Virus record (IMG/VR): IMGVR_UViG_3300012953_000013
Coordinates: 32,001-96,000 of that record
Source: a virus
Direction: 5' to 3' (one strand)
Length of the DNA stretch: 64,000 nucleotides
Part shown: positions 1,889-29,530 of the stretch, piece by piece
Numbering within the stretch: the first letter of the stretch is position 1
Layout: the number at the start of each line of letters is the position of its first letter
Translations under genes and position numbers: made by a program
The notes under the pieces: generated by a model
Database searches by the model: none
Seen by the model: the letters and a program-made list of their open reading frames with translations, nothing else
What the model was told of the DNA's origin: nothing

Positions 1889-4000
1889 TTAATTTTCAGG
1901 AGGTAAGCACAAACCCTCTAAGATTTGAACTAAAGAATTATACATTGAGATTGCGTTATCTGAAAGCTCGAAATAGCTACCGCTTGTCGCATCTGATATT
2001 TCATCCCAACCATAAGATTCGTTGGTTGAGAATGTAAAGATTTTAAGCTGGGGCGTGGCCACAGCGGCTTCAATCACAGTTTGAGTGTTTATTTCTGGAT
2101 CTAAATAGCTTTGCTCTTCTTCATCAGAAAAAACAATTATTATCTTATCGACGCCGGCTCGCCACGATACATCAAACTGGTCCTTTGGTGGGTGAGATTC
2201 TCCGACATCACCAGTCCAGTTAGATTGAGAAACATCTAAGGGGGCATTTCCTGAAATACTGTCGATAGACATATAAATCGCATCTAGTAACATTTCACTA
2301 CTCGTATCCATTCCGTCGTTTCCTAAGCCCGCAAAAGAAGCTAAGAAATCTGGAAATGGCGATATATCAGATATCATAAACAACCGGTCTTCATCGGCTC
2401 CTGGGAGATTTCTTGGTCCAACTATTAATCCCCACTGTACAGCTTCTTCTGCCTCAAAATTAATCGCAAATTGATTAAGAGCAGAGAGAACAGCGTTGAT
2501 TTCTTGATCCATTGATCCAGACCAATCTACTATAAATAAAACATCTGTGTCTGGAATCTCATTGCCCCAGTCTACTACTCCGTCGCAGTCGTCGTCTGCT
2601 CCATTGCAAATTTCGGCTGAAGGCGTCGTTTCTCCGACACATAATCCGGGCTGGAATTGATTTATTCCGTTTGTATTTCCCCAAACTCCTTCTATGCACA
2701 TAAACTCTCCAGAAGAACAGATCCCGACATTTAGAGTTTCTGGTGGACCAGTATAACATTGAGAAAACAAATCTTCATCTATATCCCCGTTACAGTTATC
2801 ATCATAATTATTGCAGTCTTCTTGTTCAAGAGGAATTCCAATAACTGGATCGCAAAATTCATTAGGGTCTTCAGGTAAATAAGCACACATTGCTTGACAA
2901 TCGGTAGTTACTATTTCTTCGCAGCTAGGGTCTACGCAAACGCAAGTTTTATAACCTAAACCACACACCATTGGTGCTTCTAAACAAGGGAAAAAAGCCC
3001 CAAGGTCATCTATACTGCACAGGCACTCTAAGCCCTCATCTATATTTCCGTCGCAGTCATTGTCGAAACCGTCGCACACCTCTTCTTGTGGCTGGTCTGC
3101 TGTACAAGAAATCCAAGAACCACTTGAACAAGTTTCAAAACCTGGGCCGCAAATAGTGTTACATTCTTGAATTAGGTCTTCATCTATAGCGCCATCACAA
3201 TTATTATCAATTCCGTCGCAGATTTCTTCAGGGACTGGGCCGCAAGATCCGCACTCATTTGTTTGACCCTCATCAATTAAGTCATCGCAATCGTTGTCTA
3301 GGTAGTCACAGATTTCTTCTTGGGGTTCAGGGCCAAAACAAATTTCTTCTCCCTGTACACAAACAGCATTTCCAGAACCGCACTCGTTTTCGCATGGGGT
3401 TACCCCCAGATCTTCGTCTACTACGCCGTCACAGTCGTCATCCGACCCATTGCAGACTTCTGGACTGCAGGGTTGGCATGGGCCGTGAAAGAGTTGCCCT
3501 TTGTTACACCAAATCTGTTGTTTTCCAAAAGTGCCATCTTCTAATTCACAGTCATACCATTCTATAAAATCTGCTGGGGCTAAAGGATTACACTCAAAAG
3601 CTAATTCACATTCTCCTTGACTTAATATCTCAGGAGGCGGGCATCCGTCATCTTGTCCATAAATACATGCATTGTTGTTCTCGTCACAGACATCGACCAA
3701 GACAGTCATAGTTCTTATGGAGTTATCTGGTGTTGGAGGGCAATACCATTGTTGGGATTTGCAGCATTGAGGGTTACAAGCGCACCAGCCTGAATGAGAA
3801 TTCGATTCAACTGAATCACATGGATCAACTTCTACATCTGGAACGTCTGGAACTCCTATTTCTAAAATAGGGATATCAGCATCAGGGTAAACATGCAGTC
3901 GTGGGCCTTCGTCAAAATCGCCCTCTCCGTTGCGTTGATCTGAGCACGACCAAATCAATGGGAGCGCGATCAGAATTAATCTGGTCCAGCGCATCGCCAT
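1889..4000 (-). CDS. Lipoprotein with six MopE-like putative metal-binding repeats and a C-terminal vWA domain
   Basis: Lipobox LIWS-C; six E-x-C-(N/D)-x-x-D-(N/D)-x-C-(D/N)-x-x-x-D repeats; MIDAS motif DVLFIVDWSGSM. Confidence 0.85.
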   Translation of the reverse strand: MAMRWTRLILIALPLIWSCSDQRNGEGDFDEGPRLHVYPDADIPILEIGVPDVPDVEVDPCDSVESNSHSGWCACNPQCCKSQQWYCPPTPDNSIRTMTVLVDVCDENNNACIYGQDDGCPPPEILSQGECELAFECNPLAPADFIEWYDCELEDGTFGKQQIWCNKGQLFHGPCQPCSPEVCNGSDDDCDGVVDEDLGVTPCENECGSGNAVCVQGEEICFGPEPQEEICDYLDNDCDDLIDEGQTNECGSCGPVPEEICDGIDNNCDGAIDEDLIQECNTICGPGFETCSSGSWISCTADQPQEEVCDGFDNDCDGNIDEGLECLCSIDDLGAFFPCLEAPMVCGLGYKTCVCVDPSCEEIVTTDCQAMCAYLPEDPNEFCDPVIGIPLEQEDCNNYDDNCNGDIDEDLFSQCYTGPPETLNVGICSSGEFMCIEGVWGNTNGINQFQPGLCVGETTPSAEICNGADDDCDGVVDWGNEIPDTDVLFIVDWSGSMDQEINAVLSALNQFAINFEAEEAVQWGLIVGPRNLPGADEDRLFMISDISPFPDFLASFAGLGNDGMDTSSEMLLDAIYMSIDSISGNAPLDVSQSNWTGDVGESHPPKDQFDVSWRAGVDKIIIVFSDEEEQSYLDPEINTQTVIEAAVATPQLKIFTFSTNESYGWDEISDATSGSYFELSDNAISMYNSLVQILEGLCLPPEN

Positions 4001-4516: not shown

Positions 4517-4786
4517 TTACTGAACGTTAGTACCAGCATCGACTTCGTCATTAACGTCTTGAACCTCTGTAGCAGCATTTTCCGTATTAACAGTATTTGT
4601 TGTAACAGAATTTACTTGGGTCGTCTCAACATTATCGACAGGGGCCGAAGCAGTATTTACTTCTTCAGTTTCTGAAACTGCTGGATTGTAGTTATACACT
4701 CCATACGCTCCAAAAGCTACGAGCCCAGTGAAAATTGCGAGCTGCAACTTTTTTTCAGCCCACACGGTCTTAAACCAATTAAACAT
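4517..4786 (-). CDS. Small membrane-anchored hypothetical protein
   Basis: N-terminal hydrophobic helix followed by a T/N/V/E-rich low-complexity tail; GGAG RBS. Confidence 0.7.
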   Translation of the reverse strand: MFNWFKTVWAEKKLQLAIFTGLVAFGAYGVYNYNPAVSETEEVNTASAPVDNVETTQVNSVTTNTVNTENAATEVQDVNDEVDAGTNVQ

Positions 4787-4847
4787 ATCAAATAACTCCT
4801 AGTTGATTGTAGGCATCTATAAACCCATGCCTTCCTGCGGTTTACGA

Positions 4848-4988
4848 TTACTCTTCTACTGAAGAATCTTCGCTAGAGCCAGAATCTGCTACCTCTGCTG
4901 AATCTGACGCTGTATCTTCTTCTTTGTCGCCGCATGCAGCTAAAAGCAAACCAGCAACTGAAAGAAAAACCAAACTGCGAATTAACAT
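4848..4988 (-). CDS. 46-aa lipoprotein (not in ORF track)
   Basis: AAGGAG RBS; MLIRSLVFLSVAGLLLAACGDKEEDTASDSAEVADSGSSEDSSVEE; lipobox LAA-C. Confidence 0.8.
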   Translation of the reverse strand: MLIRSLVFLSVAGLLLAACGDKEEDTASDSAEVADSGSSEDSSVEE

Positions 4989-5030
4989 AAAGTCTCCTTC
5001 ACTCGGTAAGAGTGGATTATTCGCTCAAAC

Positions 5031-5058
5031 AAAAAAGGCACTCCAAAGGAGTGCCTTT
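5031..5058 (-). terminator. Rho-independent terminator closing the large ncRNA
   Basis: GGCACUCC-UUU-GGAGUGCC followed by UUUUUU on the minus strand. Confidence 0.85.
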
Positions 5059-5067
5059 AGATATAAA

Positions 5068-5710
5068 AAAATGAAACCCTCAGCACTTCTCGGTTCCACC
5101 TCGTGACCATCAAACCTTTTGAGTCTGTCCCCTTGCGGGTTAGATGTAAGCACACGGAATAGTTAGTTCCTTCACGAGCTTTCTCCCTGTTCTTGATCGG
5201 TAAGGATCACGGAACAGCACGCCCTACTATCGCCATAACATTCTGCGCTCATTTGAGTAAGCTGTACACTTCCCCTCTAATTTGCGCGCCACATTTCCAA
5301 ACCTTGGGTGGATGTCCATGTGACCCCTTTCGGGACGGTAGTTTTGTTGCCAATTCTACCAGAGAGACTTCTGTTACCGACAGTTGAATTCTAGAGGATC
5401 TTAATGGAAACTCTTTCCCAAGCCTTTCAGTTTGGTTATTGCCCTTATCCCGTTTTCGCGATGAATTCACAAGTCCGCGAATATCTTTGGCAGCAATTCC
5501 TCAGTGGTATGAGGACTCTTACCTTAGACTACTGGATGATATTCAGAGGTACCACCCCCTTTAACTCATCCCCTCTCTTAGTTTGGCGGCATGCCGTAAG
5601 ACCGACACCTTCCAAATCGAGGTTTTCTCTACCAACCGCTTTCGCCGCTTCTCAGGAGCCAGTAATTCCACCTGAGTTTTGAGACCCGAGAACTAGGGTC
5701 TATACCTTTC
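5068..5710 (-). ncRNA. Large ornate structured RNA (~640 nt; GOLLD/ROOL-like size class, family unassigned)
   Basis: GC-richer than its flanks, no credible ORF, many stems (GACCC/GGGUC, CUCAGG/CCUGAG, CCUCA/UGAGG, UCGCG/CGCGA, GGUAG/CUACC, CUGUUC/GAACAG, CUCGUGA/UCACGAG), GNRA loops CCC-GAAA-GGG and CCC-GCAA-GGG, upstream promoter, downstream terminator, close to tRNAs. Confidence 0.8.
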
Positions 5711-5749
5711 TAAGTTTTTAAAGATCGAATTAATTTATTAATTATCTGT

Positions 5750-5778
5750 ATTATAATGATGATTCATGCAATGTTCAA
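5750..5778 (-). promoter_or_regulatory. Sigma70-like promoter for the large ncRNA
   Basis: TTGAAC-17 nt-TATAAT. Confidence 0.7.
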
Positions 5779-5792
5779 TAAAAAGTTAATTT

Positions 5793-6260
5793 TTATTTTG
5801 TGTGAGAATCAGCAATAAAAGCCGCCCATGAATAAGGCTTAACTCTACACTTAAAGCCTGCGCCTTTTACCCATCCATTAACAGCATCGACAAAAACTCT
5901 AGTAGCTGATCTATGAGTTCTGCCGATATCTACATGGACCTCAATGTCTGCTTGAGGATATTTTTCTATTAAATCCATAGCAATGTCGATAGAATTTTGC
6001 ACTTCTTTCATTATTCTCACTCTTAAAACTGTATATTTTTCTCTTTTCAGTTTTTGTCTGTTGAAAAAATATGTTGCATAAAATTTATCTACTTGGCCGT
6101 GCAAGCAAATAGTTGTTACAAAAGTACACCTATCACTCTTAACTTGGCTATCGGTGCCTATAAATACTTTCCCACCGCCAACAATATATTTGTCGATCCG
6201 AGCCATCAGATCTGTAAAGGGTATGGGATCTCCCGATCCTGTAAACCATCGGTCTTTCAT
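5793..6260 (-). CDS. RNase H-like protein, YkuK/DUF458 family
   Basis: VFIGTDSQ, RIMKEV..SI.IA and IEVHVDIG acidic motifs. Confidence 0.8.
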   Translation of the reverse strand: MKDRWFTGSGDPIPFTDLMARIDKYIVGGGKVFIGTDSQVKSDRCTFVTTICLHGQVDKFYATYFFNRQKLKREKYTVLRVRIMKEVQNSIDIAMDLIEKYPQADIEVHVDIGRTHRSATRVFVDAVNGWVKGAGFKCRVKPYSWAAFIADSHTK

Positions 6261-6320: not shown

Positions 6321-6397
6321 TGGTCGGGATGGCAGGATTTGAACCTGCGACCCTCTGCTCCCAAAGCAGATGCGCTGCCAGACTGCGCTACACCCCG
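6321..6397 (-). tRNA. tRNA-Pro(UGG)
   Basis: Cloverleaf starting CGGGGUG, anticodon arm UCUGC-UUUGGGA-GCAGA, CCA end. Confidence 0.95.
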
Positions 6398-9739: not shown

Positions 9740-10750
9740 TTATGTGTTAACCCAATCAGACTGAGTGTTGATTCTCTTATTAAACCTTTTGTAGAGTTCT
9801 TCTGCTTTAGAAGAATCTCCGGCAACGGAATCGTCTATAAGATCTAATAAATCTTCAGCTTCTTCCGAGGAAAAGAAAGCCCGAAAACCTGAAGGAAGAC
9901 TCGAAACACTTTCTAAATAATTTGTCATATCAACTAGTAGTCTATCTTGCGGATCTGCTGCTAATACTCTGGATTTTATTTCTGTTTTACTAACTCCACC
10001 CCTGCCGCTAAACATCGCGTAGAGAGGTGACTGAAGTCTTTGAACAGACGAATAATCTGGGTTTGGAATCTTGAAGACTCTATCTGGAGTTTGAACCATT
10101 AAACCCTCTATTGGGCCGCCAAGAAGACTTTGGTCTACAGAATAAGCTATAATACTAGAAACTAAAGATCCGTAATCTTTAAGTTCAGACCTTTTAAGCT
10201 TTCCAGAACTAAGATTTGTTTTTGCGTCTTCTAAAAGCTCAATATCTTCTGGAGAAAGTTCAAAAGAATCATGGGAAATTTCTTCTAAAGAAACAAACCT
10301 GATTCCATCTTGAGATTGATTCAGCATATTTGTTTCCTCTGCTGTCAACTCTCCAGTATACTCTATAGCAGCCGGTTGGTCACCAATCAAGTAGTTTATA
10401 TAGTCTGGTCTTGAAACCGCGTCTATAAATTCAAAAGCAAACCGTCTAGAAGAAACAGGCGTCTCTAAAGCTGATAGTGCTGTCGTTATTTGTTTTGCTT
10501 TTCCTCTAGGTTCTCCCCATGAGCTTCCAGCTTCTCTACCGCTTTTTGTCTTAGAAGAAAAAGAGCCAGTGTCAGAGCCGTGAAGTATCTCTGAATGGCT
10601 TCCAGCGAATTTTTCTGAAAAATCAAAAACGCCCTCTCCAGTCAAAACATAGTTTATAAGATCTATTATCTCTTGTTGAGAAAGATCTCCAGGTTGTTTT
10701 GTACGAGCCTCTTTGATGACTTGCTTTATTAATTTTCTCAGCTCTTTCAT
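9740..10750 (-). CDS. Hypothetical protein with ligase-like EG...FKI motif and N-terminal LRKLIKQVIKE motif
   Basis: GPIEGLMV...RVFKI resembles nucleotidyltransferase motifs IV-V; coupled to the HIGH-family gene (ATGA overlap). Confidence 0.55.
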   Translation of the reverse strand: MKELRKLIKQVIKEARTKQPGDLSQQEIIDLINYVLTGEGVFDFSEKFAGSHSEILHGSDTGSFSSKTKSGREAGSSWGEPRGKAKQITTALSALETPVSSRRFAFEFIDAVSRPDYINYLIGDQPAAIEYTGELTAEETNMLNQSQDGIRFVSLEEISHDSFELSPEDIELLEDAKTNLSSGKLKRSELKDYGSLVSSIIAYSVDQSLLGGPIEGLMVQTPDRVFKIPNPDYSSVQRLQSPLYAMFSGRGGVSKTEIKSRVLAADPQDRLLVDMTNYLESVSSLPSGFRAFFSSEEAEDLLDLIDDSVAGDSSKAEELYKRFNKRINTQSDWVNT

Positions 10751-11352
10751 TCTAACACCGCAAAAATAAAGTCTCTAACTAAATCTTCACTCAAGTTAGA
10801 TCTTAAAATATTATAGATATTTTCTCCATTAACACCAGGAGGCATGTAGCTAGAAAATTTTTCCAAGTTGCCAACTTCTAAATAGTGGCGCAGTTTTCCA
10901 CCACTTACGTTGGGGGTGCCTTCTCCACGAGTGAACCTACCAGGATCTTCTTCGGCAGCAAAAATTACCCTACCTAAACTGCACATGGGCTCCATGTACT
11001 TTTCTCTAGAGACTTCAGGGTAATTTTGGGACGTATCTTCAGGATCTGAATAAACTGTATAGATATCGTTTTCATCACCGGTTGAACATGCTTGTTCAAT
11101 AGCTTGGTAAACTTTTCTTACGGGAGACCCTCCATATTCAATGCTGACGTTTGAGGGCATTATTGCTTCAAGCTCTTCACTCCATATTCTCTGCATAGCG
11201 CTCCCAAGAACAGGAAACTCACCCTCTCTTTTTCTGTCTGAAGTAGAAACAAACAAAATTACTTGATCATTTTCTTCAGACGCTATCATTACTAGAGAAT
11301 GGTGACCAACATGATATGGTTTCGCTGATACTGGAACTAGACCGATTCGCAT
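10747..11352 (-). CDS. HIGH-superfamily nucleotidyltransferase (cytidylyl/adenylyltransferase-like)
   Basis: KPYHVGH motif; C-terminal VSGGKLR..L. Confidence 0.75.
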   Translation of the reverse strand: MRIGLVPVSAKPYHVGHHSLVMIASEENDQVILFVSTSDRKREGEFPVLGSAMQRIWSEELEAIMPSNVSIEYGGSPVRKVYQAIEQACSTGDENDIYTVYSDPEDTSQNYPEVSREKYMEPMCSLGRVIFAAEEDPGRFTRGEGTPNVSGGKLRHYLEVGNLEKFSSYMPPGVNGENIYNILRSNLSEDLVRDFIFAVLE

Positions 11353-15156: not shown

Positions 15157-17028
15157 TTAAGAATCAGAAACGTCTTCGAATTCTGCATCCACCACGTCAT
15201 CATTAGGCGGAGGGTTAGATTCTGAAGTTTGAGCACTTGAAGCATTGTATAATTCTGAGCTCAGTGCATGGAGCTTAGATTCTAGATTTTCAAATGCCGT
15301 CTTCAAATCTTCTCCTGACTCTAAAGCTGATCTTCCCTCTTCTAGAGCTTGGTTAATAGAAGACATTGTCTCTTCAGAAACATTTTCTTTATTTTCATCA
15401 ACCATCTTTTGAGTCTGGTAAATCAAAGAATCAAGCTTGTTTTTAGCTTCAACTTGTTCAAACTTTAGCTTATCTTCTTCTGCTGCTGCTTCTGCATCAG
15501 CAACCATGGATTCAATATCCTTATCAGATAATCCTCCCTGCCCTTCAATTCTAATGCTTTGTTCTTTTCCTGTAGCCTTATCTTTAGCAGCAACACTTAA
15601 AATTCCATTTGCGTCTAGATCGAAAGTAACCTCAATTTGAGGAATACCTCTAGGAGCGGGTGGAATGCCTGAAAGCTGAAACTTTCCGAGGGTTCTGTTG
15701 TCTTTAGAGAATTTTCTTTCTCCTTGAAGAACATGAATATCGACAGCAGATTGATTATCTGCAGCGGTACTAAACACCTCTGTTTTTGCTGTTGGAATAG
15801 TTGAATTTCTTTGAATTAAAACTGTATTCACACCGCCAATGGTTTCGATTCCCAAAGATAGCGGTGTTACGTCTAGCAAGAGGATGTCCGTAACATGTCC
15901 AGAAAACACCCCGCCCTGAACTGCTGCTCCAAGTGCGACTACCTCATCAGGATTAACTGAAGAGTTTGCTTCTTTTCCAAAAAAATCTTCAACAGCTTTA
16001 CGAACAGCGGGAATTCTAGTAGAACCACCCACTAGAATTACTTCATCAATATCACCTTTAGATAGGCTGGCATCTTTCAAAGCATTTTTAACTGGAACAA
16101 GAGTTTTTTGAACAAAGGAATCAATCATTTGTTCAAACTTAGCGCGAGTTAAAGAGTGAACAAGGTGCTTTGGACCACTAGCGTCTGCAGTAATAAAAGG
16201 AAGATTAATATCAGACTTCTGCGCAGAAGACAGCTCAATCTTCGTTCTTTCAGCGGCTTCCTTTACTCTTTGAAGTACAATTGCATCGCCAGAAATATCA
16301 ATCCCGGTGTCTTTCTTAAACACAGACATTAGGTGCTCAATCAAAATTTGATCGACATCATCGCCACCTAAGTGGGTATCGCCATTCGTGCTTAAAACTT
16401 CAATAACCCCATCAGCAATTTCTAGAATAGAGATATCGAAAGTACCACCACCGAGGTCAAAAACAGCTACTTTTTGCTCTTTTGATTTGTCCATCCCATA
16501 AGCAAGAGCAGCGGCTGTTGGTTCGTTAATAATTCTCTTGACGTCTAGACCCGCAATCTTTCCAGCGTCTTTTGTGGCCTGTCGCTGAGCGTCATTGAAG
16601 TACGCAGGTACAGTAATTACTGCTTCGGTTACTTCTTGACCCAAGTATTTTTCAGCTTCTCTCTTAAGCTTCATCAAAACTTGAGCTGAGATTTCTTGAG
16701 GGGATAACTTTTTGTCGCCAACAATAATCCGGCAATCTCCCGACTCACCCCCAACAATCTTATAAGGAACCTTAGAAAGTTCTTCTTTTGCTTCGTTAAA
16801 GCGCATTCCCATGAATCGCTTCACCGAGTAAATTGTTGTCTCTGGATTTACAACTGATTGTCTTCGCGCAGAAGCTCCAACTAACCTATCTCCATCTTTG
16901 GTATAAGCGACAACAGATGGGGTAGTTCTGGTACCCTCTTCGTTTGTAATAACTTTTGGATTTTTTGGATCAACAACTGCGACAGCAGAATTAGTAGTAC
17001 CCAAGTCAATTCCGATAACTTTTCCCAT
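15157..17028 (-). CDS. dnaK: Chaperone DnaK (Hsp70)
   Basis: [40 protein letters not shown]; full length, 623 aa. Confidence 0.98.
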
Positions 17029-18187: not shown

Positions 18188-18548
18188 TGGTGGAGGCGGC
18201 GGGAGTCGAACCCGCGTCCGCAATAGTCTAAGTTTGAGTCATTCACAAGCTTAGTTGATTAATTCCCTAACCAACAAGGTATCTCGAAAAAATCCATCCA
18301 TCCGCATCGAGAATTAGGATCCACCTGTTAAAACAGGGTAACCGATTTTTGATCTTATTTATTTCAGTGAGATCAACCACTTATCCTAAATTGGTTAGAT
18401 GGCCTTAGGAAGCCACCCGATTAAGCTGCTAGAGCGTATTCGTAATTGTCGTTATTGTTGGCAATTATAGTTGTTGAACTTTTAAGGTTGTATCTTACCT
18501 ACTTGCACTCTCCCCCGGATTCTACCCCGTCGAAACCGTGACGCCCCC
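18188..18548 (-). ncRNA. ssrA: tmRNA; tag ANNNDNYEYALAA (18421-18462)
   Basis: 5' GGGGGCGUCACGGUUUCGAC; 3' GGUUCGACUCCCGCCGCCUCCACCA with a G3:U70 pair; tag ORF ending in YALAA-stop. Confidence 0.96.
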
Positions 18549-27955: not shown

Positions 27956-29530
27956 TTATTCGTCATATACTATAGAGCAACCTACTGACAGCAGAGAATT
28001 AGCTGCTGCAACAGAGTTTTCTAAAGCGCATCTCACTACTTTCTTTGGATCTATAATCCCAAGCTCTAGTAAATTTCCAAATTTTTTCTCTCTAGCATCA
28101 TATCCAACAAAATCTTCTTCTTCTAAAAGCTTGTGGATTATCAAATCAGGAGACTCTCCACAATTAACGCTAATGTTCCACGCAGGTGCTTTAATAGCCT
28201 GAAGAAGCATATTATATCCAGCATAAAAATCAGTGTCCCAAGATTTATTAGATCTTACTTTTGAAGATGCTCTCAAGAGAGCTAAGCCGCCTCCAGGAAG
28301 GATCCCTTCTTCGACAGCTGCTTGAGTGGCATGAAGGGCGTCTTCCACTCTATCTTTTTTCTCTTTTAGCTCAGTTTCAGTAGACCCGCCGACTCTTAAA
28401 ACTGCTACAGCTCCCGCAAGGTTCGATAACCTTCTTCTCAAAACATCTGTTTCATTAGAGTCTAGACTTGAAGTTTGCAACATTTTTTTAATAGCAGAAA
28501 CCCTTGATTCTATTTCATCACTCGAATCAGCAGTCACAAAAATTGATTCATGTCTACTGATTATAACTTTTTTAACTCTTCCCAATTCTTCAATTTTAGT
28601 TGGAAAATCTTCGGCTCCAGAATAAGATTTTGTGTTGAACATCAGCGATAAATCGCTCATGGTATCTACCCTAGCGTTTCCAAACTCGGGGCTTCTAATT
28701 ACACAGACTTTTAAAACTCCCTTAATTGAGTTTAAAACCAGGGCTTTCAATACTTCACCCTCAACTTCATCTGCAACTATCACCAACGGTTTACCATCTC
28801 TAGCGCAAACTTCCAAAATAGGAAGAAGATCTCCCATTGAGCTTATGACTTGGTTTGCTAAAAGAACTACAGGGTTATCTAGCTCACAAACTAATCTGTC
28901 ACTATTAGTAACAAAATACGGTGATACAAACCCCCTGTTTAACTTAAGTCCATCTACGACATCCAAGGAAGTCATAAAGCCTTTTGCTTCTTCCACTGTT
29001 ATGATGCCATCTTTTCCAACAGCATTCATAGCCCTACAAAGAAACTCGCCGATCTCTCTGTCTCCATTCGCAGAAATAGTTCCTACATTTATTATATCTT
29101 CGTCTCCCTTAACAGGACGGGACATTTTATCTAGCTTGTTTAAGACTTCATTTTTTGCTGCTATCATCCCTTCACGGACTTTTACAGCGTTGTGGCCAGA
29201 TGTGAGAAGCTTCATCCCTTCTTGGAAAAGAGCTTGAGATAAAACTGTTGCTGTGGTTGTGCCATCTCCAGCGACTTCAGCTGTTCTAGACGCAGCTTCT
29301 TTAATAAGTTGAACTCCTAAATTCTTATAAGAGTCTTTAAGGTTAATCGACCTGGCAACTGTTACACCATCTTTAGTTAAAATAGGAGGGCCATCAGCAG
29401 ATTCAATAATAACATTTTGCCCAGATGGACCCATTGTGGTTTTTACTGCGTTTGCTAGTAAATTTACACCCTCTAGTAATTCTTCTCTAGCATCGTGAGA
29501 AAAAACTAAAACCCTATTTTCATCTTTCAT
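27956..29530 (-). CDS. groEL: Chaperonin GroEL (phage-type, no GGM tail)
   Basis: TMGPSG, TKDGVTVA, AGDGTTTAT, RVEDALHAT, GGG; 524 aa. Confidence 0.96.
   Translation of the reverse strand: MKDENRVLVFSHDAREELLEGVNLLANAVKTTMGPSGQNVIIESADGPPILTKDGVTVARSINLKDSYKNLGVQLIKEAASRTAEVAGDGTTTATVLSQALFQEGMKLLTSGHNAVKVREGMIAAKNEVLNKLDKMSRPVKGDEDIINVGTISANGDREIGEFLCRAMNAVGKDGIITVEEAKGFMTSLDVVDGLKLNRGFVSPYFVTNSDRLVCELDNPVVLLANQVISSMGDLLPILEVCARDGKPLVIVADEVEGEVLKALVLNSIKGVLKVCVIRSPEFGNARVDTMSDLSLMFNTKSYSGAEDFPTKIEELGRVKKVIISRHESIFVTADSSDEIESRVSAIKKMLQTSSLDSNETDVLRRRLSNLAGAVAVLRVGGSTETELKEKKDRVEDALHATQAAVEEGILPGGGLALLRASSKVRSNKSWDTDFYAGYNMLLQAIKAPAWNISVNCGESPDLIIHKLLEEEDFVGYDAREKKFGNLLELGIIDPKKVVRCALENSVAAANSLLSVGCSIVYDE

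Follow-up and report, generated by a model that had tools for sequence, protein, structure and literature searches.

Introduction

The known natural RNAs of great size and complexity are very few, namely ribosomal RNA (rRNA), RNase P, introns, OLE, GOLLD and ROOL, and each of them has repaid study. GOLLD and ROOL are encoded by phages and prophages near transfer RNA (tRNA) islands, have no known protein partner and form cages (PMC12286853); that of GOLLD is known as a nanocage from cryo-electron microscopy (cryo-EM; Kretsch et al. 2025, PMC12286853), while ROOL env-120, an RNA of 659 nucleotides (nt), forms an octameric one (PMC12286853). Pairings in GOLLD and ROOL that were first read as tertiary proved to be intermolecular (PMC12286853). 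Here we describe an RNA of similar proportions, the giant RNA, on the minus strand of a 64,000-nt stretch of viral DNA (the window; positions 32,001-96,000 of the 184,866-bp IMG/VR virus record IMGVR_UViG_3300012953_000013). From the comparison of its homologues we consider it nearly certain that the locus holds a genuine gene for a structured RNA, that the family is uncatalogued, and that the RNA would be independently expressed and trans-acting. The fuller reading that we favour, at a probability of roughly 0.6, is that of a stand-alone gene for a large, compact, trans-acting noncoding RNA (ncRNA), carried in single copy by mostly T4-like marine phages and produced by the route proposed below.

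The giant RNA shares with GOLLD the character of a large, ornate, stand-alone phage ncRNA, found in marine metagenomes and without known partner or function, and it has many covarying pseudoknots and kissing loops as well. Being phage- or prophage-encoded and often near tRNA islands, a feature that marks membership of GOLLD, is true of the giant RNA also. It differs from GOLLD in length (~630-700 nt versus >800 nt), in showing no match to it in sequence or structure, and in being conserved over its whole length behind a BoxA-like leader, whereas the 5′ half of GOLLD is variable; furthermore, the cage has been seen for GOLLD, whereas the giant RNA is known here from sequence alone. ROOL is nearly equal in size, phage- or prophage-encoded near tRNA islands, rich in pseudoknots and free of a protein partner, and its variable linker region has a counterpart in the giant RNA at ~5450-5425. 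ROOL, however, belongs to rumen and Lactobacillales phages rather than to marine T4-like ones, and the helices and conserved motifs of the two RNAs are unrelated. Phage T4 itself provides a familiar case of non-tRNA RNAs encoded amid tRNAs: its tRNA gene cluster includes the stable RNAs C and D, which have no known function and are co-transcribed with the tRNAs; these are only ~120-140 nt long and simple.

Results

The gene directly upstream of the giant RNA (5793-6260, minus strand) encodes a YkuK-type RNase H-like protein, and the first seven relatives of the RNA were found via metagenomic relatives of this neighbour. On the contigs of the latter, the gene is followed by a gap of ~800 nt free of open reading frames (ORFs), and the sequence is 77-98% identical to the window RNA (blastn, nhmmer); in L015 the giant RNA lies 2 kb off, on the opposite side of the YkuK gene. 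Three search patterns were taken from the alignments, the third reusing one block of the first and the second sharing no block. With these partly independent patterns we retrieved ~35 contigs from IMG/VR, the longest measuring 316 kb, and with a three-block pattern at least 119 marine metagenome contigs. The resulting family comprises 128 full-length homologues from IMG/VR phage contigs and marine metagenomes, of which 94 remain when a limit of 97% identity is set, and any two are on average 66% identical; an nhmmer profile matches 128 copies end to end, and the RNA of L033 can be aligned with that of the window over its full extent. Six genomes were inspected whole, and each holds exactly one copy.

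Among 185,579 species genomes, the three-block pattern occurs only in three contigs of metagenome-assembled genomes (MAGs; L171-L173), labelled Halobacteriovorax, Methylococcaceae TMED69 and Flavobacteriales. The discordance of these labels suggests phage DNA mis-binned into MAGs, and the three are thus probably phage contigs; one of them measures 101,404 bp, as does IMG/VR contig 2788500220_000014. Other routes yielded nothing further. The giant RNA had no match by blastn in distant mode against 50,697 GenBank phage records, the exact 19-mer around its GAAA hairpin had none either, and relatives of the locus sought in IMG/VR through the YkuK-type neighbour could not be confirmed. By BLAST, no giant RNA is present in the DnaK-derived relatives L002-L006, which are mostly short fragments, so that this carries little weight. 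It is also missing from the more distant YkuK loci L016-L018, where the ORF-free gaps are tRNA arrays and tmRNA (transfer-messenger RNA).

An earlier note on this DNA had called a large, ornate, stand-alone ncRNA here and proposed that homologues be collected; covariation is strong among the 28 to 94 homologues aligned, and the call is borne out. With 17 sequences, RNAalifold found compensatory changes in 99 of 155 pairs. On alignment A3 (28 sequences), 93.1% of cells are paired in our first structure, with both-side changes in 126 of its 187 pairs; for the curated structure, which includes pseudoknots, the corresponding values are 95.7% and 120 of 187. None of 500 shuffles reached the observed values for either structure, and when partners were slid by 1-3 columns as a control, 41-47% were paired and the covariation score was 0.08-0.12, versus 0.48 observed. 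A mutual-information scan of the 94-sequence alignment recovers the nested helices independently, together with six further pairings. In all, the giant RNA has ~45 helices, tertiary pairings included, and six of its long-range or kissing-loop pairings covary. The alignments are MAFFT-based, and the variable linker and the closure of the 5′ domain are less certain than the rest. Single-sequence folding against shuffles (z = -3.6 for the sense and -3.0 for the antisense strand) is weak evidence by itself, and the case rests on the comparative data. The sense strand is the minus strand, as follows from the orientation of promoter and terminator, from the orientation of the tRNAs, and from the pair tables, where G-U often stands as an alternative that would appear as an A-C mismatch on the opposite strand.

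The features of the locus are collected in Table 1.

Table 1. Elements of the giant-RNA locus, with their positions in the window.
Feature	Position	Strand	Sequence or pairing	Evidence or role
Sigma-70-type promoter	-35 5778-5773; -10 5755-5750	minus	TTGAAC, 17-nt spacer, TATAAT	Consensus scan, 10/12 positions match
BoxA-like leader element	5726-5716	minus	GATCTTTAAAA	Putative NusB/NusE site for processive antitermination
Conserved folded core, ~626 nt	5074-5699	minus		nhmmer, covariation
5′ domain, multi-branched hairpin set	5455-5699	minus		Helices 3-18, each 91-100% paired, most pairs compensatory
5′-domain hairpins	5676-5651; 5571-5534	minus	CUCAGG/CCUGAG; GGAUGA/UCAUCC	Curated structure
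Further 5′-domain hairpins	5515-5498; 5481-5455	minus	UCCUCA/UGAGGA; UUCGCGG/UCGCGAA	Curated structure
Pseudoknot A	5602-5597 with 5580-5575	minus	Loop GUCUUA with UAAGAG	Helix 11: 94% paired, 3/6 pairs changed on both sides
Kissing loops B	5555-5550 with 5509-5504	minus	GUGGUA with UACCAC	Helix 14: 91.6% paired
Pseudoknot C	5469-5463 with 5391-5385	minus	Loop UGAAUUC with GAAUUCA	Helix 20: 100% paired, 4/7 pairs changed on both sides
Long-range helix D	5422-5417 with 5308-5303	minus	CUUGGG with CCCAAG	Helix 23; joins linker to central domain
Short tertiary pairing E	5425-5424 with 5162-5161	minus	AG with CU	Helix 22; 2-4 bp in other members
Central domain	5226-5384	minus	Closed by ACUGUCG 5384-5378 with CGAUAGU 5232-5226	Helices 25-36
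Hairpin with invariant stem base	5217-5187	minus	CUGUUC 5217-5212 with GAACAG 5192-5187	Helix 37
3′ domain	5100-5178	minus	Closed by CUCGUGA 5178-5172 with UCACGAG 5106-5100	Helices 38-44; closing helix 95.9% paired, 4/7 pairs compensatory
3′-domain inner elements	5139-5130; 5146-5143 with 5111-5108	minus	CCC-GCAA-GGG; CAUC with GAUG	Curated structure
Kissing loops F	5153-5148 with 5088-5083	minus	GUGCUU (3′ domain) with AAGUGC (terminal-hairpin loop)	Helix 41: 98.2% paired
First terminator-like 3′-terminal hairpin	5097-5073, then 5071-5065	minus	Hairpin, then U7	Stem covaries (helices 37-38 of the first structure)
Second, stronger intrinsic terminator	5058-5028	minus	11-bp hairpin 5058-5034 and T-run	Terminator scan

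At the closure of the 5′ domain, the partner of ACCC may be either a local GGGU or a GGG much farther away. Kissing loops B show a U-A to A-U switch, other members of the family having GUGGAA with UUCCAC. Across the 94 sequences, one pair of helix D is C-G in 79 and U-A in 14, and another is G-C in 67 and U-A in 22. Even the short pairing E varies in this manner, one pair being A-U in 58 sequences, U-A in 25, G-C in 5 and C-G in 3, and the next G-C in 71, C-G in 11 and U-A in 8. Kissing loops F change in concert as well: two of their pairs are divided as 14 C-G to 14 U-A and as 17 U-A to 11 C-G among 28 sequences, and one as 55 C-G to 39 U-A among 94. Since this last pairing anchors the loop of the terminal hairpin in the fold, the hairpin is more than a terminator and belongs to the RNA itself.

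Against this background of covariation, several blocks never vary. The central domain contains the invariant hairpin CCC-GAAA-GGG (5334-5325) and, according to a palindrome scan, the invariant palindromic loop UGUACA (5268-5263), which, because it never varies, yields no covariation evidence. All six pairs of CUGUUC/GAACAG are identical in 28 of 28 sequences, while five pairs at the tip of the same hairpin covary; the invariant GGGAGAAA follows directly after it, and GUCCCGAAAGGG, GAAGNCUCUCU and GAAGUGUACAGCU are further never-varying blocks amid covarying neighbours. Invariant blocks partly served as search patterns, so that their invariance among the matches is partly by construction. Nevertheless, each pattern found the other blocks unchanged, and the independent second pattern recovered the CUGUUC/GAACAG block in unaltered form. 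The stems singled out in the earlier note, more than ten of them local and CCC-GAAA-GGG and CCC-GCAA-GGG among them, are all present; the long-range CUCGUGA/UCACGAG helix and most of the others are kept by compensatory changes in the homologues. Two candidates were dropped: a Shine-Dalgarno-like AAGGAGG, considered as an anti-16S site, is one strand of a covarying helix, and a local CCAAGA/UCUUGG hairpin gave way to the long-range CUUGGG/CCCAAG, which covariation favours.

Window positions 5778-5028 read as one apparent transcription unit, in which the promoter is followed by an AT-rich leader, a GC-richer body and two terminator-like hairpins; transcription would start near 5743. The promoter, the U-tailed terminator (5031-5058) and the non-coding, GC-richer island of the earlier note were all recovered. 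TTGAAC-N17-TATAAT is kept in the close relatives L008, L014, L013 and L009, while in other members (L033, L030, L032, L028) a same-strand tRNA stands where the promoter would be. At the position of the second terminator, the close relatives have a hairpin and T-run of different sequence, and a T-run is found just past the end of the model in 87 of the 94 family members. GC content is 0.45-0.50 over 5000-5700, versus 0.30-0.39 directly upstream and 0.41-0.43 downstream. The longest ORFs within the region are 92 aa (plus strand) and 73 aa (minus strand), and the median longest open frame across the 94 members is 91 aa. Conservation in the family does not follow a protein reading frame: no coding periodicity was detected among the 94 members, period-3 power ranking 334th among 347 frequencies. 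The folded core is ~626 nt long (5699-5074), and the primary transcript would measure ~680-715 nt, judging by the signals in the DNA.

The leader contains a motif, G(U/A)UCUUUNA(A/C)A, that is nearly invariant in the family and lies ~25-35 nt 5′ of the first helix. It resembles BoxA, for which the gamma-proteobacterial consensus is GYTCTTTAANA (Baniulyte et al. 2017, PMC5725501). The window element has one mismatch to this consensus; its position 2 is A, and position 8 varies across the family. Of 89 family leaders, 29 match the consensus exactly and 72 with at most one mismatch, versus 0.1% and 1% of shuffled leaders. The motif is retained in L033, where a tRNA instead of a promoter adjoins upstream. 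The BoxA of rRNA-operon leaders and spacers is likewise an 11-nt element just 5′ of a long, structured, untranslated RNA, and the position of the giant-RNA element downstream of a strong promoter or a tRNA recalls the leader and the 16S-23S spacer, respectively. In contrast to rRNA operons, the RNA behind the phage element has no rRNA similarity (Rfam), and antitermination is putative here. Production of the giant-RNA transcript under Nus-factor antitermination is, we infer, the best reading of the leader; on rRNA, such antitermination helps with folding as well.

Rfam 15, at gathering thresholds, reports only tRNAs and tmRNA in the whole window. At E<=10, the region 4700-6100 gave scattered chance matches to small-RNA models, all far under gathering scores, and a search at E<=1 with ten diverse members of the family yielded nothing but tRNAs and chance fragments. 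The earlier note had found no hallmarks of several known families and suggested a scan for GOLLD, ROOL, OLE and HEARO; at E<=10 the region matches none of these four, nor RNase P, introns, tmRNA or the signal recognition particle RNA. For the GOLLD model RF02032 (gathering score 150 bits), the whole record holds only a 5-bit chance match elsewhere, and none in the giant-RNA region. The ROOL model RF03087 (99.1 bits) has no match in the whole record; control genomes gave none either, so it is the Rfam scans that carry weight. RNase P type A (RF00010 and relatives) is not matched in the whole record, while 11 of 14 control genomes had a match. For OLE (RF01071), there is no Rfam match and no OapA-like protein among the recurrent neighbour clusters, and the context is that of a marine T4-like phage. 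Group I and II introns have no Rfam match in the window, and the giant-RNA unit is intergenic with its own promoter and terminator.

Because the model searches rule out membership, the giant RNA is a class separate from GOLLD and ROOL. Hence, of the suggestion that it was either a divergent member of one of these or a new class, the first part fails for the window and the ten members alike, whereas the second stands relative to Rfam 15. In the literature on large phage RNAs we found GOLLD, ROOL, OLE and two large surveys, and the giant RNA is not described there, the Minerva preprint included. It thus stands as a new class relative to Rfam 15 and the literature searched, the 8,495 unnamed candidates of one IMG/VR survey (PMC10690425) lying outside this comparison.

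A tRNA cluster within about 600 nt had also been claimed, and indeed tRNA-Pro (6321-6397) lies 543 nt from the giant-RNA promoter; tRNA-Pro, tRNA-Gly, tRNA-Arg, tRNA-Met and tmRNA are all nearby on the same strand. In the family, a tRNA is found within 1 kb in 32 of 94 non-redundant loci, the nearest tRNAs are co-oriented with the giant RNA in 46 of 50 cases, and in 13 of the 83 loci with enough flank no more than 100 nt lie between the end of a same-strand tRNA and the 5′ terminus of the RNA; in L028 the giant RNA lies inside a tRNA array. No protein neighbour is constant, the most recurrent families occurring in at most 8 of ~34 neighbourhoods; among those that recur are a cytidylyltransferase-like protein, an FKBP isomerase and the YkuK protein. 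The last was considered as an obligate partner and rejected, since it is absent from loci that were found without using its gene.

The carriers are marine phages that are uncultured, large and for the most part T4-like. The window's record has a Gp23 capsid gene of the T4 type, as do three of five other carriers tested, among them two complete genomes of 204 and 293 kb.

Discussion

We propose that host RNA polymerase would transcribe the giant RNA, either starting at the sigma-70-type promoter of the unit or reading through from a tRNA that lies upstream. The BoxA element would recruit the Nus antitermination complex, as on rRNA operons, and this complex would shield the long untranslated transcript from Rho and aid its folding. 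Judging by the promoter and leader motifs, we consider transcription by the host enzyme and BoxA/Nus antitermination probable when taken jointly. tRNA-processing enzymes and the terminal hairpin would set the ends, and the mature RNA would accumulate during infection as a free, folded particle.

What such a particle might do is suggested by analogy. An RNA-only particle, possibly a homo-oligomer, could assist the module of tRNAs and tmRNA with which the phage takes over translation, and some of the six pairings described above as tertiary, along with the invariant UGUACA loop, could then be contacts between copies. Of the modes of action considered, one like that of the GOLLD and ROOL particles is the one we prefer, and we offer it tentatively, as less likely than not. 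A related proposition, in our view doubtful to a similar degree, is that giant phage RNAs have here evolved independently a third time, as a class whose members assemble without protein into a defined quaternary structure.

Several points weigh against the proposal as a whole or in part. Two thirds of the loci have no tRNA within 1 kb. The transcription, ends and abundance of the RNA are read from signals in the sequence only. The BoxA-like motif may instead serve structurally, for in the RNAalifold structure its UCUUU has GGAGA (5186-5182), which is invariant, as its partner; because both strands are invariant or nearly so, covariation cannot separate a protein-binding from a structural role. 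With regard to a cage, palindromic loops that switch between palindromes, the published sign of symmetric kissing loops, were not found. Among the conserved loops UGUACA alone is self-complementary, and chance would be expected to supply roughly one 6-mer of this kind in an equal amount of conserved unpaired sequence. Finally, a protein-binding site or a catalytic core would account for the invariant CUGUUC/GAACAG, GUCCCGAAAGGG and GAAGNCUCUCU no less well than a cage would.

It is on such blocks that the best-surviving alternative builds, namely that the giant RNA is a scaffold or decoy that sequesters or re-targets a host or phage protein, for instance a ribosomal protein, a nuclease, a tRNA-modifying enzyme or a defence protein. 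Never-varying blocks beside freely covarying helices, as in the 28 of 28 identical CUGUUC/GAACAG stems and the GAAA hairpin, are the usual mark of sequence-specific recognition, and translation and chaperone genes (tRNAs, tmRNA, DnaK and GroEL) are nearby. A role of this sort has been proposed for OLE RNA with bS21. OLE also sets the precedent for a large, ornate RNA acting with proteins (PMC12286853). Against it, no protein gene is a consistent neighbour (the best is found in 8 of ~34 loci, and YkuK drops out of the loci collected without it), although a partner may be encoded elsewhere or by the host; we regard the scaffold or decoy as unlikely.

More improbable, in our estimation, is a new ribozyme that acts on phage tRNA or tmRNA precursors or excises itself from a tRNA-array transcript. 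The compact, multi-pseudoknotted fold with its invariant unpaired nucleotides and six covarying tertiary pairings is of a complexity otherwise met in RNase P, group I and II introns and rRNA, and the position directly behind a same-strand tRNA in 13 of 83 loci, or inside the array of L028, would suit such an activity. Nevertheless, GOLLD and ROOL are as ornate without known catalytic activity (PMC12286853), we found neither a candidate site of cleavage nor a pairing with a substrate, and neither the region (E<=10) nor the ten members (E<=1) has any similarity to an Rfam 15 ribozyme, RNase P being matched nowhere in the genome.

A cis-acting leader, that is, a riboswitch or attenuator of the 46-aa lipoprotein-like ORF at 4988-4848, is close to refuted: the RNA unit does lie 40 nt upstream of this same-strand ORF, whose N-terminus recurs downstream of the RNA in L014 and L009, but two terminator-like hairpins with U-runs intervene, the downstream genes vary by locus (FKBP in five loci, tRNAs and unrelated ORFs elsewhere), and 626 nt with six tertiary pairings far exceeds any known leader. 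Just as remote is the possibility that a known element (a group I or II intron without an ORF, a fragment of rRNA, a divergent RNase P or, under another genetic code, a protein gene) has decayed here or taken an unusual form. Such an element would be alike in size and hairpin density, and the dnaK intron of the related phage L005 might be cited for it, but it is countered by the lack of any Rfam match, of flanking exons and of coding periodicity, by the unit's own promoter and terminator, and by strong purifying selection across the 94 members (66% mean identity) with compensatory changes, because of which the region is not decaying.

A stand-alone, trans-acting giant RNA in phages of this kind would be of interest on several counts. 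Its carriers, large phages of the T4-like kind, are common in the ocean, and it offers, beside GOLLD and ROOL, an independent case for asking why large phages keep a giant RNA near tRNA genes. The family, with more than 150 sequences and 94 well-spread variants, has an unusually high density of covarying tertiary contacts, and the fold is constrained enough for cryo-EM and for benchmarks of three-dimensional prediction. The BoxA leader provides a first testable handle on how the RNA is made and hints at proteobacterial hosts. If the proposal is true in full, abundant marine T4-like phages make a self-assembling particle by an rRNA-like, BoxA-dependent antitermination route.

Other genes of the window and its relatives

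The YkuK/DUF458 RNase H-like gene (PF04308) occurs in L007-L018; on many related contigs of marine phages it lies in islands of tRNA, tmRNA and giant-RNA genes, and its neighbours include tRNA arrays (L017) and tmRNA (L016); the YkuK/DUF458 protein may act on stable RNAs.

The window's tmRNA (18188-18548, minus strand) encodes the tag peptide ANNNDNYEYALAA. The giant-RNA carrier L033 has a tmRNA as well, with the tag ANNNYYFEESRLAA, and so does L016. On the minus strand of the window there are also a full-length DnaK (15157-17028), 58% identical to bacterial and megaphage DnaK, and a GroEL gene (27956-29530). DnaK, GroEL, the tRNAs and tmRNA together form an unusually complete phage module for proteostasis and translation.

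Just downstream of the giant RNA, the minus strand encodes a secreted-looking protein of 703 aa (1889-4000) with at least four MopE-type Cys-rich metal-binding repeats (PF11617) and a weak VWA domain. The 46-aa ORF, which begins 40 nt past the RNA's terminator, has a lipoprotein-type signal (…LLAAC) and an acidic tail; the positions at which its N-terminus recurs in L014 and L009 are equivalent to that in the window.

The record behind L027, complete at 293 kb, has two tandem Gp23-type major capsid genes of 640 and 631 aa (G007:C1:176509-180120). On L005, a 180-kb IMG/VR phage contig, a group I intron at 10573-10962 on the plus strand (RF00028, 50.6 bits) splits dnaK, and the DnaK match there is in two pieces.

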